From Escherichia coli (GTDB lineage Bacteria > Pseudomonadota > Gammaproteobacteria > Enterobacterales > Enterobacteriaceae): a stretch of 64,000 nucleotides of DNA. The translations under genes were made by a program, and so were the position numbers. Numbering within the stretch: position 1 is the stretch's first letter; each line of letters opens with the position of its first letter. Shown piece after piece: positions 3,966 through 48,429 of this stretch. The notes below the pieces were generated by a model that was given only the letters and a program-made list of their open reading frames with translations, searched no databases and was not told the DNA's origin. The stretch lies in the NCBI RefSeq assembly GCF_044647545.1, contig NZ_CP172818.1; one strand, given 5' to 3'.

Positions 3966-5324
<1,359 letters not shown>

Positions 5325-5331
5325 TTCGACA

Positions 5332-6957
5332 TCAACCCTGCCCTTCAGGGGTGGGGTTACCTTGCTTATCCTCAGTAAACTCCTTTCTTAGCATCACAAA
5401 ATCGAAAACATCATGGTTTGCATCTACAACCCGTGAGTCTCCTTTATAGTGTGCAATCACTTCCTCAAGCGTTTGCGGCTGTTCCGGCTTTGTTACCCCC
5501 ATCCACGCATTAATAAGGTAATTATTGTACGCAGTGGAAAAGATATCGTTTTCCGTTGTGCGATCCACGCCATCCCCAAGAACGGGGCTATACCAGATAA
5601 ACATCGGGACATGATATGCCTGCTGGCTGGCCTCCCTGCCTCCATGAAAATAGACGTTCTTCTTCGTAGGGTCGCGTTCCAGGCCGTGGTCGGCAAAATA
5701 CATGACCGAGGCGCGGCGATCTTTTAATAATTCAAAAACCTGACCTAGCAAACTATCTGTGTAATGAATGGAGTTGTCATAGCAGGCATCCTGATCGTCC
5801 TGCGGTTGAAACACGGCGCTGGATTGCGGATAGGCGCTACAAGCCGGTTCATGGCTTCCATTTAAATGAAGAACAATCAGTTTCTTTTGCTGCGTCTTTT
5901 GCTGTAACGCTTGCGATAAATGCGGCAACAACAATTCATCAAATCCTCTGACATAGACTGTTTCCATGGCGCGCATGGCGATACTGGTAACTGCTGTACC
6001 ATTCTGCCGAAAAGCGGATTGCGAGCTTAGCCAGAAAGTCTGAAATCCTGCTTGATTAGCCATATTAATAATGTTGTCCGGGTAATTATGAATGTCATGA
6101 CTCAAAACAGAATCAGCAGTTAAAGAAAGGGGAACCGACAGCGCAGTGTAAGGTGCACCGCTTATTGCTTGATTAAACAGTTTGATCTGTTTTCTTTGTG
6201 CTTCGACTTGCGGTGTCGTAGAGCGTGTGTATCCATACAAAGACATATTGTCGACACGTACAGACTCCCCCACAATCAACACGTAGGTATCAATACCTGT
6301 ATCCCTGACTGATAATTGAAAATACGGCACCGTGTTTGCAATTGAGAGTAATCTTTGATGCTCTTTCGCTGCTAAAGCAAAATAATTGAGATTGAAAAAC
6401 GGTGTATAGGTAGCAAATCGCGACGCTAGTATATATGGACTGAACGCTTTTTTATTTTTTGCATCTTTATAAGCAAATTGACAAGCGGAAAATAAACTGC
6501 CCGAAATGACAATCAGCAATAATATTCCTGTCACTTTTTTTGTCGGCAAGGAAACATCATATTTTATTATTACTGCCAAAAAAAGAAGGGATAAAAAAGC
6601 AAAAGCACATAGATAAGGGATATACATCCCCAGCATTTTCACAACTTCATCCGGATCACTCTGCAGCACACTAATCGCAAATCCATCATTGAAAGTTGTA
6701 CCAAAGGTACACCATGAATAGAGGCTAATACTCATGTCTGCCGCAGTCAGTAACACAAATGGTGCGGCAACAAGCAGGCGAAGCGGAAGGGATGATATAC
6801 GTTTAACAACCAGGATGGTCAGAACGAAAAACAGCAATCGCTGAACCATATGCGCTCCGGAAGAGGCGACTAAGTTCGTAATACCAAAAACAATAACACA
6901 AAGATACAACAACCAATGAGATTTAAAACTTCTAACAAATTTGTTGAATACTGTCAT
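5332..6957 (-). CDS. yhbX: Inner-membrane sulfatase-family (phosphoethanolamine transferase-like) protein YhbX
   Basis: ORF of 552 aa; start moved to internal Met (MTVFNKF...) for the ~541-aa form; N-terminal TM helices then sulfatase-like domain; convergent with argG, 7-bp gap. Confidence 0.75.
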   Translation of the reverse strand: MTVFNKFVRSFKSHWLLYLCVIVFGITNLVASSGAHMVQRLLFFVLTILVVKRISSLPLRLLVAAPFVLLTAADMSISLYSWCTFGTTFNDGFAISVLQSDPDEVVKMLGMYIPYLCAFAFLSLLFLAVIIKYDVSLPTKKVTGILLLIVISGSLFSACQFAYKDAKNKKAFSPYILASRFATYTPFFNLNYFALAAKEHQRLLSIANTVPYFQLSVRDTGIDTYVLIVGESVRVDNMSLYGYTRSTTPQVEAQRKQIKLFNQAISGAPYTALSVPLSLTADSVLSHDIHNYPDNIINMANQAGFQTFWLSSQSAFRQNGTAVTSIAMRAMETVYVRGFDELLLPHLSQALQQKTQQKKLIVLHLNGSHEPACSAYPQSSAVFQPQDDQDACYDNSIHYTDSLLGQVFELLKDRRASVMYFADHGLERDPTKKNVYFHGGREASQQAYHVPMFIWYSPVLGDGVDRTTENDIFSTAYNNYLINAWMGVTKPEQPQTLEEVIAHYKGDSRVVDANHDVFDFVMLRKEFTEDKQGNPTPEGQG

Positions 6958-16960: not shown

Positions 16961-17926
16961 TCATTCGCCTGCGCGGGGTTGCGATACCACCGTTGTATGC
17001 TTACGTAATCCGCCCCAAATACGATGACCAATGGCGGAATACATCGCGCCCGCAACCACGACAAACGCACCGAGATAACCTAAAAGGTTTAACATCGGTC
17101 TGGCGAAGAAATCGGGCCAGGCCAGTGACAAAAGATCTGAAAAAAACAGCGTAAACAGTGGGGTGAGCGTGATGATCGCGCTCACCTGCGCTGCCTGCCA
17201 GCGAGCCATCGCTTCCGCCAGGGCGCCATATCCTACCAAGGTATTCAGTCCGCAAAAAATTAAACATGCGAGCTGCCAGTGGCTAAGCTGCGCTATCACT
17301 CCAGGCTTTGCCAGAGGGAAGAGCGCAATTGTACATAAAGTGTACAGTAAAAACAGGATCTGCGGTGAGGCCAGCCGACGCAATAAAACCTTTTGCGCCA
17401 CGCCATAACTCACCCACACCGTCGCCGCACCGACCCCAAAGATTACTCCCCAGGTGTAATCGGTGAGCTTTGTAAATATCTCGACCAGACTGGTGTTAAA
17501 AAACATCACCAGGCCGCTCAGGAGCATCAATGCCCCTACAACCTGAGTGCTGCGCATTTTCTCTTTCAGGATAAATACGCTGGCAACCATCATGCCAACT
17601 GGCGAGAGTTGCCCAATCACCTGCGAAGCGGTCGGACTCAGGTATTGCAAGGATGAGCTGAACAGGATGAAGTTCCCAAACAGCCCGGCGGTCGCCACTG
17701 CCAACAAAATCAACCAGCGTGGCTTACGAAACACGCGTAATGGCGGCAACCTCTTCTTCACCGCAAGAATGGCACCAAGGCCAATACTCGCCATCAAGAA
17801 ACGGTAAAACACGATTGTCGGAGGTTCCATCACCTCCAGCACCTGCTTCATTGCGATTGGCAACGCCCCCCAGCAAATTGCTGTGGTGAGCGCCAAAAGA
17901 ATGCCAATGCCTGCCTGCTGCTTCAT
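16961..17926 (-). CDS. yhbE: EamA/DMT-family inner membrane transporter
   Basis: 321-aa hydrophobic ORF MKQQAGIGILLALTTAICWGALPIAMKQVLEVMEPPTIVFYRF...; ~10 predicted TM segments; downstream of obgE. Confidence 0.8.
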   Translation of the reverse strand: MKQQAGIGILLALTTAICWGALPIAMKQVLEVMEPPTIVFYRFLMASIGLGAILAVKKRLPPLRVFRKPRWLILLAVATAGLFGNFILFSSSLQYLSPTASQVIGQLSPVGMMVASVFILKEKMRSTQVVGALMLLSGLVMFFNTSLVEIFTKLTDYTWGVIFGVGAATVWVSYGVAQKVLLRRLASPQILFLLYTLCTIALFPLAKPGVIAQLSHWQLACLIFCGLNTLVGYGALAEAMARWQAAQVSAIITLTPLFTLFFSDLLSLAWPDFFARPMLNLLGYLGAFVVVAGAMYSAIGHRIWGGLRKHTTVVSQPRAGE

Positions 17927-19872: not shown

Positions 19873-20100
19873 TCCCCTCCCCCTCATCCCGCGCAGCGCG
19901 CGGGATGATTCCAGTAAATTCCATAAAAACACTTATTCAGCTCTATAAAACCTGAAAAATAGGGCTGTACATCTTTATATATTCTGAATATTCACACTCT
20001 TTACAGGAACTTTTTAGAGCAATAGGCCATCAGGAGTATAGTGATGCTCGACAGAAGAAGTGTTCTGAATGAAAGCGACTAACTTAAGGAGTGAGGAAAG

Positions 20101-31652: not shown

Positions 31653-31769
31653 TTGTCCGGGCAATTAGCATGTGCATGGCGGCCTGTTGTGCGGCACAAC
31701 GGGCCATTTGTACGGTTAATGCTCCGAGCCTGTTCCACTGTTTGAGTGGGCAGGTTCTTAGGTGAAATT

Positions 31770-44375: not shown

Positions 44376-45788
<1,413 letters not shown>

Positions 45789-45909
45789 GGTGTTCTGGAA
45801 AGCGCCTCGCATAATCTGAAGAAAACCAATGTAATACGCACATCTGGATTGTTACCGGCCGATGCAGATCCCGGCGTATAGCTGATTCCATTATTCAACA
45901 CTGCGCCAT

Positions 45910-47037
45910 ATGAAGGGACAGATAATGGAATCGCTCTCAGAAGGAACCACAGCAGGCTACCAGCAAATCCACGACGGCATTATTCATCTGGTCGATAGCG
46001 CCCGGACGGAAACGGTACGTAGTGTTAACGCGTTAATGACCGCCACATACTGGGAAATTGGCCGACAAATTGTCGAATTTGAACAAGGTGGCGAGACCAG
46101 GGCTGCGTATGGTGCGCAGCTAATCAAGCGACTATCAAAGGATTTAAGTCTAAGGTATAAGCGTGGGTTTTCCACCAGGAATTTATGGCAGTTTAAGAAT
46201 TTTTATATTTGTTTTCAACGAATTGAAATTGTGCAGACACTGTCTGCACAATTCACCCCCACAATTCGCCAGACACTATCTGGCGAATCTTGCCATTTAG
46301 CGCAACTTGCCAAATCTTTCCCCCTGCCCTGGTCCACTTACGTCCGTTTGCTTTCTGTTAAAAACGCTGACGCTCGTAGCTTTTATGAGAAAGAAACACT
46401 CCGCTGTGGCTGGTCTGCTCGTCAGCTCGAACGGCAAATTGCGACCCAATTTTATGAGCGGACACTACTGTCACATGACAAATCAGCCATGCTGCAACAA
46501 CACGCTCCTGCCGAGACGCATATTCTTCCGCAACGGGCGATACGCGATCCCTTTGTGCTCGAATTTCTGGAATTGAAAGATGAATATTCAGAATCCGATT
46601 TTGAGGAGGCGCTGATCAACCACCTGATGGATTTCATGCTGGAACTTGGGGATGATTTTGCCTTTGTTAGTCGACAGCGAAGGTTACGCATTGATGACAA
46701 CTGGTTTCGTGTCGATCTGCTGTTTTTCCACCGCCGTTTACGCTGCCTGCTAATCGTCGATCTAAAAGTGGGCAAATTCAGCTATAGCGATGCCGGACAG
46801 ATGAATATGTATCTCAACTACGCCAAAGAGCACTGGACGCTACCGGATGAAAATCCGCCCATCGGTCTGATTCTCTGTGCAGAGAAAGGAGTCGGAGAAG
46901 CGCATTATGCACTGGCTGGTTTACCTAACACCGTTCTGGCGAGTGAATATAAGATGCAACTACCTGATGAAAAACGACTCGCGGATGAACTCGTTCGAAC
47001 ACAGGCGGTGTTAGAGGAAGGCTATAGACGCCGTTAA
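45910..47037 (+). CDS. yhcG: DUF1016 / PD-(D/E)XK nuclease-superfamily protein YhcG
   Basis: 375-aa ORF MKGQIMESLSEGTTAGYQQIHDGIIHLVDSARTETVRS...; C-terminal region has restriction-endonuclease-like D...(E/D)xK spacing (RVDLLFF, IVDLKVGKF); alternative start at ATG 45925 (MESLSEG). Confidence 0.8.
   Translation: MKGQIMESLSEGTTAGYQQIHDGIIHLVDSARTETVRSVNALMTATYWEIGRQIVEFEQGGETRAAYGAQLIKRLSKDLSLRYKRGFSTRNLWQFKNFYICFQRIEIVQTLSAQFTPTIRQTLSGESCHLAQLAKSFPLPWSTYVRLLSVKNADARSFYEKETLRCGWSARQLERQIATQFYERTLLSHDKSAMLQQHAPAETHILPQRAIRDPFVLEFLELKDEYSESDFEEALINHLMDFMLELGDDFAFVSRQRRLRIDDNWFRVDLLFFHRRLRCLLIVDLKVGKFSYSDAGQMNMYLNYAKEHWTLPDENPPIGLILCAEKGVGEAHYALAGLPNTVLASEYKMQLPDEKRLADELVRTQAVLEEGYRRR
46227..46253. 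repeat. 27-bp palindrome, copy 1 (inside yhcG CDS)
   Basis: aattgtgcagaca-c-tgtctgcacaatt: perfect 13-bp arms around a single central base. Confidence 0.7.
46263..46289. repeat. 27-bp palindrome, copy 2 (inside yhcG CDS, 9 bp after copy 1)
   Basis: aattcgccagaca-c-tatctggcgaatc: 11 of 13 arm positions complementary; same AATT....CAGACAC core as copies 1 and 3. Confidence 0.7.
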
Positions 47038-47051
47038 TTTCAGCGGTTTCG

Positions 47052-47078
47052 AATTCTCCAGACACTGTCTGGAGAATC
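47052..47078. repeat. 27-bp palindrome, copy 3 (14 bp downstream of yhcG stop)
   Basis: aattctccagaca-c-tgtctggagaatc: 12 of 13 arm positions complementary; differs from copy 2 by compensatory changes (cgcc/ggcg to ctcc/ggag). Confidence 0.7.
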
Positions 47079-47096
47079 TTTAAAACGAACTAAGTT

Positions 47097-48429
<1,333 letters not shown>

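Follow-up and report, generated by a model that had tools for sequence, protein, structure and literature searches.

A dyad-symmetric element at one coding site of the YhcG/DUF1016 nuclease family

In this study, we explored three 27-bp palindromes at the yhcG locus of Escherichia coli, in a stretch of 64,000 nucleotides of contig NZ_CP172818.1 (the window), and the element that they represent. Our findings show that a 25–27-bp dyad-symmetric element belongs to the YhcG/DUF1016 family of nucleases at one fixed site, its symmetry being kept while its sequence turns over. The site corresponds to loop codons of the N-terminal domain, just 5' of a conserved LSW(S/T)HY motif, and the same element occurs in YhcG/DUF1016 genes of many bacterial phyla, archaea, and phages. 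The original prediction, made from the letters of the window, had noticed the three palindromes and read the compensatory changes in their arms as a sign of selection on the nucleic acid. The palindromes are real, with none expected from 100 shuffled sequences, and the covariation, whether it reflects selection or drive at the nucleic-acid level, holds across the whole gene family.

One element at one site of a nuclease family

Beyond E. coli, the survey covered 80 further DUF1016 loci, on contigs taken from one genome per species, which span Proteobacteria, Acidobacteria, Cyanobacteria, Bacteroidota, Firmicutes, Actinobacteria, Verrucomicrobia, and candidate phyla, with an archaeal part that includes Methanoperedens, ANME-2, and Woesearchaeota. 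Across 91 DUF1016 genes of 29.5–100% identity, the density of hairpins with a score of at least 9 is 4.2 per kb over the 200 nt that precede the conserved Trp codon, against 0.10 per kb elsewhere in these genes and 0.07 per kb in flanking DNA; palindromes are 40-fold rarer in the remainder of these genes than at the fixed site. A scan for odd-centred palindromes yielded 82 in-gene copies, 81 of them with the dyad centre on the first base of a codon, and a centre base that is C in 49, G in 26, T in five, and A in two. Arm pairing amounts to 0.80–0.99 at positions 1–12 (0.80 at position 1 from the centre, 0.96 at position 2) and then declines to 0.66, 0.40, 0.17, and 0.21 at positions 13, 14, 15, and 16. 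The family consensus can be written R-A-T-T-N-N-S-C-A-G-A-C-A-[C/G]-T-G-T-C-T-G-S-N-N-A-A-T-Y; several Watson–Crick pair types are found at every pair position, and all 13 arm positions covary. Plasmid DUF1016 genes at 29.5–41% protein identity (Hymenobacter, a Salmonella IncHI2 paralogue, Clostridium, and Rhodococcus) have, at the equivalent position of the alignment, a perfect or nearly perfect palindrome whose sequence is unrelated. The element is apparently undescribed, as the original prediction had supposed: there is no description of it in the YhcG/DUF1016 literature searched, its core sequence does not occur in the papers searched, and Rfam gives no match up to E = 1 for 45800–47200 on either strand. 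Features of this kind are known already, as cis-acting symmetric sites within coding sequences or as palindromes that correct themselves. The apparent novelty is a version whose position and symmetry have been conserved throughout a nuclease family, in two domains of life, and which shapes a Pfam motif.

The constraint acts on the DNA and not on the peptide. After synonymous-codon shuffling the mean best score of the 91 genes is 5.3, compared with 10.2 observed, and 71 of them outscore all 20 of their own shuffles; third codon positions match the partner base far above the codon usage of the gene at all eight codons. Arm complementarity is hence kept as the sequence changes, beyond synonymous-codon expectation, which was the outcome that the original prediction looked for among orthologues. 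Selection of genes by their palindrome does not enter a second test, for which 25 minimal-linker genes were picked by protein alignment only and the site was fixed at the Trp codon minus 18 nt. Here the paired fraction of cells is 86.5%, compared with 66% after shuffling and 20–37% with slid partners; the covariation score is 0.52 against 0.17, a level reached by 0 of 500 shuffles; and nine of the 13 pairs change on both sides. All 25 genes have at most 5 of 13 arm mismatches, and those first scored as being without the element are decayed (2–5 of 13 mismatches), not empty. At the protein level, the residue pairs V/AQ, R/GE, W/AK, and P/AE covary because their codons are reverse complements, from which the pair L/GE follows as well, and the DUF1016_N motif of Pfam, 'I-x-Q-T-L/V-S-x-E/K-L/F', appears largely dictated by DNA symmetry.

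The constraint is probably not on the mRNA either. Among arm mismatches there are 18 G·T and 38 A·C, wobble not being favoured, and the innermost pair (A:T in 50 cases, G:C in 11, A:C in nine, and G:T in four) covaries, with p = 3e-5, and is A:T in 21 of the 25 unselected genes. An RNA hairpin, one of the roles first proposed, is disfavoured because G·T is not favoured over A·C and because the innermost pair is kept though unable to pair. A structured RNA would tolerate G·U and not A·C and would leave its non-pairing loop positions free, neither of which is seen. The two-fold symmetry of a duplex, central base pairs included, is what we find, as for a dyad-symmetric operator, and the centre is C or G in 75 of the 82 in-gene copies and in 35 of 41 solitary non-coding copies. 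Thus, the data point to the duplex, or to a copying process, over an mRNA hairpin.

The window locus and the alleles of E. coli

The yhcG region of the window (table 1) is 100% identical to that of E. coli FDAARGOS_497. The motif as first written had its blocks and positions right, yet its four-base spacers were wrong, since the spacers measure 3 nt and the NNNN form finds one site. The corrected pattern, AATT-NNN-CAGACA-N-TGTCTG-NNN-AATY, matches only at 46227, 46263, and 47052, and pattern scans gave no further copies elsewhere in the window. The inner arms complement each other (GTG/CAC, CGC/GCG, and CTC/GAG), and the in-gene copies encode IVQTLSAQF and IRQTLSGES, both as originally read. 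All 13 arm pairs of copy 1 are matched, around a dyad centre that is the first base of the Leu codon CTG; as single-stranded DNA this copy has a predicted folding energy of -12.1 kcal/mol (z = -5.8). The two mismatches of copy 2, the palindrome nearest the conserved LPWSTY motif, lie in the right core (TATCTG) and at the outermost pair (A/C), and the one mismatch of copy 3 is also at the outermost pair. Start-to-start distances are 36 and 789 nt, the latter in agreement with the spacing of about 790 bp first given for copies 2 and 3.

Table 1. Features of the yhcG locus in the window
Feature	Position	Strand	Description
yhcG coding sequence, 375 aa	45910..47037	+	open reading frame and Pfam: DUF1016_N residues 24-184, YhcG_C PD-(D/E)XK nuclease residues 209-360
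In-gene repeat segment	46213..46291	+	two 36-nt units, one palindrome each (repeat families D1, D2)
Palindrome copy 1	46227..46253	.	AATTGTGCAGACA-C-TGTCTGCACAATT; perfect 13+1+13, inverted repeat I4
Palindrome copy 2	46263..46289	.	AATTCGCCAGACA-C-TATCTGGCGAATC; 2 arm mismatches
Relic of in-gene segment	47038..47080	+	begins right after the TAA stop, in frame: FQRFRILQTLSGES
Palindrome copy 3	47052..47078	.	AATTCTCCAGACA-C-TGTCTGGAGAATC; non-coding
nanQ (yhcH), convergent neighbour of yhcG	47097..47561	-	open reading frame and annotation; context only

Copy 3 stands 14 nt past the stop codon, within the 59-nt spacer of the convergent yhcG and nanQ. Judged by its sequence, it is a duplicated gene fragment, a relic of the loop-coding segment, and not an independent motif, because the 40 nt from 47038 repeat 46213–46252 at 78% identity (repeat D2) and because the stretch reads on in frame past the stop. 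With in-gene copy 2 it has 29 nt in common, at 90% identity (repeat D1).

In E. coli yhcG is highly polymorphic, most genomes being just 90–95% identical to the window allele. The K-12 allele has three in-gene units with a period of 39 nt, the O157:H7 allele one, and the window allele two with a period of 36 nt, and all three have the post-stop copy. Tandem palindrome units number 1–3 per gene in E. coli and up to five elsewhere, a variation mirrored by the YhcG lengths in databases (349, 362, 370, 375, and 382 aa), and the distance from copy 2 to copy 3 is 762 or 789 nt according to the allele. Of 5,426 E. coli genomes, 3,711 have the post-stop segment. With a 46-nt query that includes the post-stop palindrome, the median number of places per genome is two and the maximum 6; in the loci read, which did not extend to the extra places of genomes with 3–6, both places are the yhcG locus. 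The possibility of a dispersed repeat unrelated to yhcG, raised at the outset, does not apply to E. coli on these figures and applies in part elsewhere, where about 27% of copies are solitary (see below). Across four E. coli alleles the 59-nt spacer differs solely at arm pair 7 of copy 3, C:G or G:C with both arms changed, and at the centre base, C or G; a more divergent strain shows changes in the flank of the relic and none inside the palindrome. In Salmonella, yhcG contains a single in-gene copy, whose compensated arm is different again (CCG/CGG), and that of Pseudocitrobacter has two good copies and a decayed one, with a canonical terminator in place of the relic; neither orthologue has the post-stop copy.

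Several observations concern the surroundings of the gene. The gltD–yhcG interval (45789–45909), in which gltD, ending at 45788 in the list of open reading frames of the window, is directly followed by yhcG, is best read as a variable junction, because two K-12-type loci carry the fimbrial genes yhcD/yhcE/yhcF upstream of yhcG. The 60 nt upstream of copy 1 (about 46170–46226) are hyperdivergent among E. coli alleles (about 65% identity) between nearly identical flanks, and the window allele resembles Salmonella and Pseudocitrobacter there, a likeness that hints at the import of a mini-cassette. An antisense RNA of stationary phase, G0-10703, has been reported (PMC7967276) to share 128 bp with the 5' region of yhcG; the overlap, reported for K-12 and not for the window allele, corresponds to about 45800–46040 in the window, the 5' end of yhcG. 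Other 27-bp near-palindromes of the window, at 17161–17187, 19883–19909, and 31680–31706, have two mismatches each and an unrelated, G+C-rich sequence.

Copies outside the gene and rearrangement breakpoints

Viral and metagenome contigs were scanned with the core ATT-N3-CAGACA-N-TGTCTG-N3-AAT, the N3 arms being left free, and in 87 of 128 metagenome sites these free arms are complementary at 3/3 positions, for which chance is 1/64. Intact DUF1016 genes hold 77 of the 159 exact-core sites and DUF1016 fragments 14; a further 25 are cut by a contig end, and 43 (about 27%) have no DUF1016 homology within 2 kb, in a scan that required intact arms and left decayed relics uncounted. A BLAST search with a single palindrome variant against phage and plasmid collections was too insensitive for a census of copies. 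The solitary copies examined are mostly intergenic, often 1–80 nt past a stop codon, and have just 25–33 nt (about 27 bp) in common, no larger mobile unit having been found among them. Type I restriction-modification or antiphage loci contain some of them, and others lie between housekeeping genes; for example, a perfect palindrome (L179, 2612–2636) stands alone in a short hemF/hemB spacer, 10 nt past the hemF stop, with no DUF1016 homology near it.

The 3' edge of the palindrome is a recurrent rearrangement breakpoint. Four of 12 right-truncated DUF1016 fragments end exactly there, and about 1,000 E. coli genomes have a yhcG allele that breaks off precisely where the third palindrome ends on its 3' side, with foreign DNA following. 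In two such truncated alleles (L002, 4403–4900; L004, 4182–4680) the nuclease part is replaced by about 470 bp, which hold an open reading frame of 101 aa annotated 'transposase' (WP_000639208.1) and then a hairpin with a 10-bp stem. This reading frame has no family match in NCBIfam, PADLOC, or PHROGs, and so gives no link to hairpin-binding transposases. In a viral contig (L125), direct repeats of 179 nt, 94% identical (4686–4864 and 6008–6186), are decayed DUF1016 N-domain fragments with two palindromes each, and they flank a two-gene toxin–antitoxin cassette made of a MazF-like open reading frame (PHROGs) and a second one. By its sequence, we take this second frame to be a SocA-type antitoxin, and the adjoining one is presumably an integrase. 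Elsewhere (L111, 9938–9987), two abutting family-type palindromes, mutually out of frame, directly precede the ribosome-binding site that belongs to a large serine recombinase gene. A viral contig of high GC content (L122, 3207–3231) has a family-type palindrome at the junction of two overlapping reading frames, the upstream one ending ...IFQTLSGKLEGAC; both match PHROGs phage ATPase families (clamp-loader-like and 'ATPase'), and they resemble two halves of a single ATPase gene. At L038, finally, five tandem family-type units, encoding ICQTLSGIS, IRQTASANL, IRPTLSVEL, IQQTASVES, and IQSTSGES, lie at about 120–300, some 1 kb upstream of an intact DUF1016 gene, with no N-domain homology beside the array. 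This is the sole locus of the 80 with family-type copies in its flanks, upstream of the gene, and none of the 80 has a post-stop copy of the family type. The E. coli post-stop copy belongs among such leftovers and is a lineage-specific relic.

Possible roles and likeness to known elements

YhcG combines DUF1016_N (PF17761, 5.9e-43) with the PD-(D/E)XK nuclease domain YhcG_C (PF06250, 1.9e-55) and matches the PADLOC family PDC-S02, a phage-defence candidate. The in-gene repeat segment encodes a loop, roughly residues 102–121 of the 375-aa protein. An AlphaFold2 model shows no helix or strand at residues 97–116 of 370 and a mean pLDDT confidence of about 48–54 over 101–120, so that the palindrome-encoded peptide is modelled as a disordered, low-confidence loop between helices; a search for solved structures by sequence gave none. 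The nuclease domain resembles NucS/EndoMS, Can2, and FokI-type and other restriction enzymes, and the helical N-domain bears a weak resemblance to ParB. NucS/EndoMS acts as a dimer. The nuclease resemblance agrees with Kosinski et al. (2005; PMC1189080), and one report found yhcG deletion to be synthetically lethal with dnaB, dnaN, and parE hypomorphs (PMC2672614). An origin of the N-domain by internal duplication, with the palindrome as a fossil intergenic operator between fused repeats, was considered and rejected (hhalign probability 2%).

Why exactly this site is kept can be answered tentatively, and with rather less than even confidence: a YhcG dimer would recognise the palindrome as a duplex site with two-fold symmetry, for self-regulation and perhaps cleavage or recombination. 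An operator for a dimeric protein, possibly YhcG itself, which was among the roles originally proposed, may accordingly stand as the best single guess. The reader would most likely be a dimer that brings together the helical, weakly ParB-like N-domain and the nuclease domain, and its binding could regulate the gene as a roadblock or by substrate-mimic feedback, possibly with cleavage or recombination. Because the site can fold back, it might also undergo slippage, giving the 1–3 tandem units of E. coli, have its arms corrected against each other by template switching, and offer its 3' edge as a preferred breakpoint. The post-stop copy would be one such leftover, which may locally provide both convergent transcripts, those of yhcG and nanQ, with a 3' hairpin. 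A bolder version, which we consider doubtful, holds that the YhcG/DUF1016 nuclease has the palindrome as its cognate target, gene and site then forming a self-referential module whose site can multiply and seed solitary copies.

Several points weigh against a duplex site read by YhcG. No regulon is visible, the E. coli copies in the loci read being all at the yhcG locus, and arm positions 7–9 differ between copies within one gene, so that recognition would have to ignore them. The conserved A12, A5, and C2 coincide with codon constraints (Ile, a polar residue, and a small residue, respectively), and the similarity to ParB is weak. Symmetry through the centre is also expected from templated arm-to-arm copying alone, which would likewise account for the switch from C:G to G:C, compensated in both arms, that the non-coding relic shows within one species. 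To our knowledge, there is no precedent for an operator within a coding sequence at a fixed spot across two domains of life. Moreover, 43 of the 159 exact-core copies are solitary among unrelated neighbours, and self-regulation alone would therefore not suffice.

That the palindrome is functionless and perpetuates itself, kept perfect by template switching during replication (quasi-palindrome correction) in a loop tolerant of sequence, is unlikely, even if much of the pattern would follow from it. A change in one arm would be copied to the other or reverted, with tandem duplication and breakpoints as side effects; symmetry is perfect through the centre with only Watson–Crick pairs kept, solitary copies are still palindromic without a coding context, and such correction is established in E. 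coli (PMC7202029). The relic spacer is in keeping with it too, both in the four alleles that differ only by the both-arm swap at pair 7 and the centre flip and in the divergent strain that changed in the flank alone; a transversion in both arms with a centre flip is compatible with template switching, although selection could yield the same pattern. On the other hand, one site has been kept across bacteria, archaea, and phages, down to all 25 unselected genes with their 5 or fewer mismatches of 13, and the element is retained although the loop clearly tolerates in-frame deletions. The remaining parts of the same genes are 40-fold poorer in palindromes, a central G·C is kept even in non-coding copies, and decay to 2–5 mismatches does occur, so that correction is not absolute.

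We also regard it as quite unlikely that the element is an autonomous recombination or mobile site, like REP/RAYT or an attachment site, at which YhcG-type nucleases or host recombination exchange defence-island cassettes. The 43 exact-core sites without DUF1016 within 2 kb, the examined ones mostly intergenic with about 27 bp in common, would fit such a site, as would the truncations at the 3' edge (four of 12 fragments, and the switch to foreign DNA in L002 and L004), the toxin–antitoxin cassette between two 179-nt DUF1016 fragments, the pair of palindromes abutting the serine recombinase gene, the five-unit array of L038, and the copies in restriction-modification or antiphage loci. Yet there are few copies per replicon, L038 is alone among the 80 survey loci in having family-type flanking palindromes, and the fixed in-frame position in nearly all members argues for vertical inheritance and not for repeated insertion. 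The core site of tyrosine and serine recombinases has a crossover spacer of 2–8 bp, which the single-base centre of the 82 copies, all from an odd-centred scan, does not offer; the search, moreover, required intact arms and left decayed relics uncounted. The duplex site, the self-perpetuating palindrome, and the mobile site are not mutually exclusive, and templated arm correction probably contributes whichever of the three holds.

An mRNA hairpin within the coding sequence, which would slow ribosomes, mark an RNase III site, or stabilise the 5' fragment, with the post-stop copy as 3' stabiliser or terminator, is improbable. Predicted folds are strong (-35.8 kcal/mol, z = -7.2, for a 111-nt RNA), the post-stop copy lies close behind the stop in a convergent spacer, and several solitary copies follow stop codons at 1–80 nt. 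Against this stand the mismatch counts given above, in which G·U is not favoured over A·C, and an innermost pair kept at a synonymous site though a 1-nt loop is impossible. A consensus scan found no terminator-like site at any of the three palindromes, whose tails (CACCCC, TTGCCA, and TTTAAAAC) are without the T run of an intrinsic terminator, and the absence of an Rfam covariance match speaks against a described RNA family. Highly improbable is the bracket of the original prediction, with in-gene copy 2 and the post-stop copy as a functional pair (a loop or excision unit) around the nuclease-coding two-thirds, since, well kept as both copies are (29 nt at 90% identity) and widespread as the post-stop segment is in E. 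coli (3,711 of 5,426 genomes), that copy is the remnant of a longer in-frame duplication, is absent from Salmonella, Pseudocitrobacter, and the 80 other loci, and lies at an allele-dependent distance.

The family is a very widespread nuclease of unknown function, for which the 27-bp site is the first concrete candidate DNA substrate. Palindrome maintenance over deep time provides a system for separating selection from template-switch drive, and the element explains many truncated 'DUF1016 N-terminal domain' pseudogenes and solitary palindromes, maybe as footprints of lost or exchanged genes. If the palindrome were the cognate target, the nuclease would carry its own recognition or cleavage site in its loop codons, and that site would multiply and leave footprints. 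This would make a new class of nuclease-associated palindromic element, REP/RAYT-like and based on PD-(D/E)XK, with a range that takes in bacteria, archaea, and phages and with a link to defence islands.

Comparison with known elements places the palindrome among several kinds of site. The consensus of matS, the site of MatP, is GTGACRNYGTCAC, and MatP is not known outside some Gammaproteobacteria; the core here is CAGACANTGTCTG, of which only the central GACANTGTC agrees, and the element also occurs in many phyla and in archaea. The GACA-N-TGTC at 46236–46244, 46272–46280 (TATC in copy 2), and 47061–47069 of the window equals the matS centre, a match that we treat as coincidence, given the different outer bases and the occurrence of the element beyond enterobacteria. 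The parS sites bound by ParB are 16 bp long, have a conserved sequence, and nucleate partition complexes; YhcG is without the N-terminal CTPase domain of ParB and carries a nuclease domain instead. The TAEL repeats of type IC HsdS are in-frame tandem repeats in a linker of this DNA-recognition protein, and the length of the linker changes with copy number; they are 12 bp long and non-palindromic, whereas the YhcG units, likewise in frame and variable in copy number, are palindromic. Rickettsia palindromic elements insert in frame into genes and are lineage-specific, about 100–150 bp long, and found in many unrelated genes. Both they and the YhcG element are translated palindromic DNA tolerated in protein surface loops, but the latter has 27 bp, one family, and one site, with solitary copies that have no larger unit in common. 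Identity with such an element, or with a miniature inverted-repeat element, was rejected: no unit extends beyond the hairpin, and in-gene copies are confined to DUF1016 apart from rare exceptions such as L122.

Operators inside coding regions are known from lac O2 in lacZ, gal OI in galE, and the PurR site in purB. Like the YhcG element they are dyad-symmetric duplex sites, in their case read by dimeric helix-turn-helix proteins and acting by looping or as a roadblock; they are single-gene cases with a conserved sequence, whereas here position and symmetry are conserved family-wide and the presumed reader would be the gene's own product. With quasi-palindrome hotspots (PMC7202029) the element has in common that arm-to-arm correction gives a symmetric centre and compensated changes in one step, as in the post-stop relic; the hotspots are mutational events in reporters and genes, not elements kept at one site of a family over deep time. 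The comparison with REP/RAYT excludes identity with REP/BIME sequences, as there are no many dispersed copies (a median of 2 and a maximum of 6 places in E. coli, none further in the window) and the associated gene encodes a PD-(D/E)XK nuclease, no HUH gene having been seen at the loci examined. REPs are imperfect and extragenic, number tens to hundreds per genome, flank rayt, and form hairpins cut by an HUH enzyme, whereas the YhcG element is perfect, odd-centred, in frame inside its gene, low in copy number, and linked to a PD-(D/E)XK nuclease. The likeness lies in the arrangement: in both cases, short palindromes tied to one nuclease-type gene family, with structure kept more than sequence, stand at or next to the gene, and solitary copies are found in intergenic spacers, often just past stop codons.

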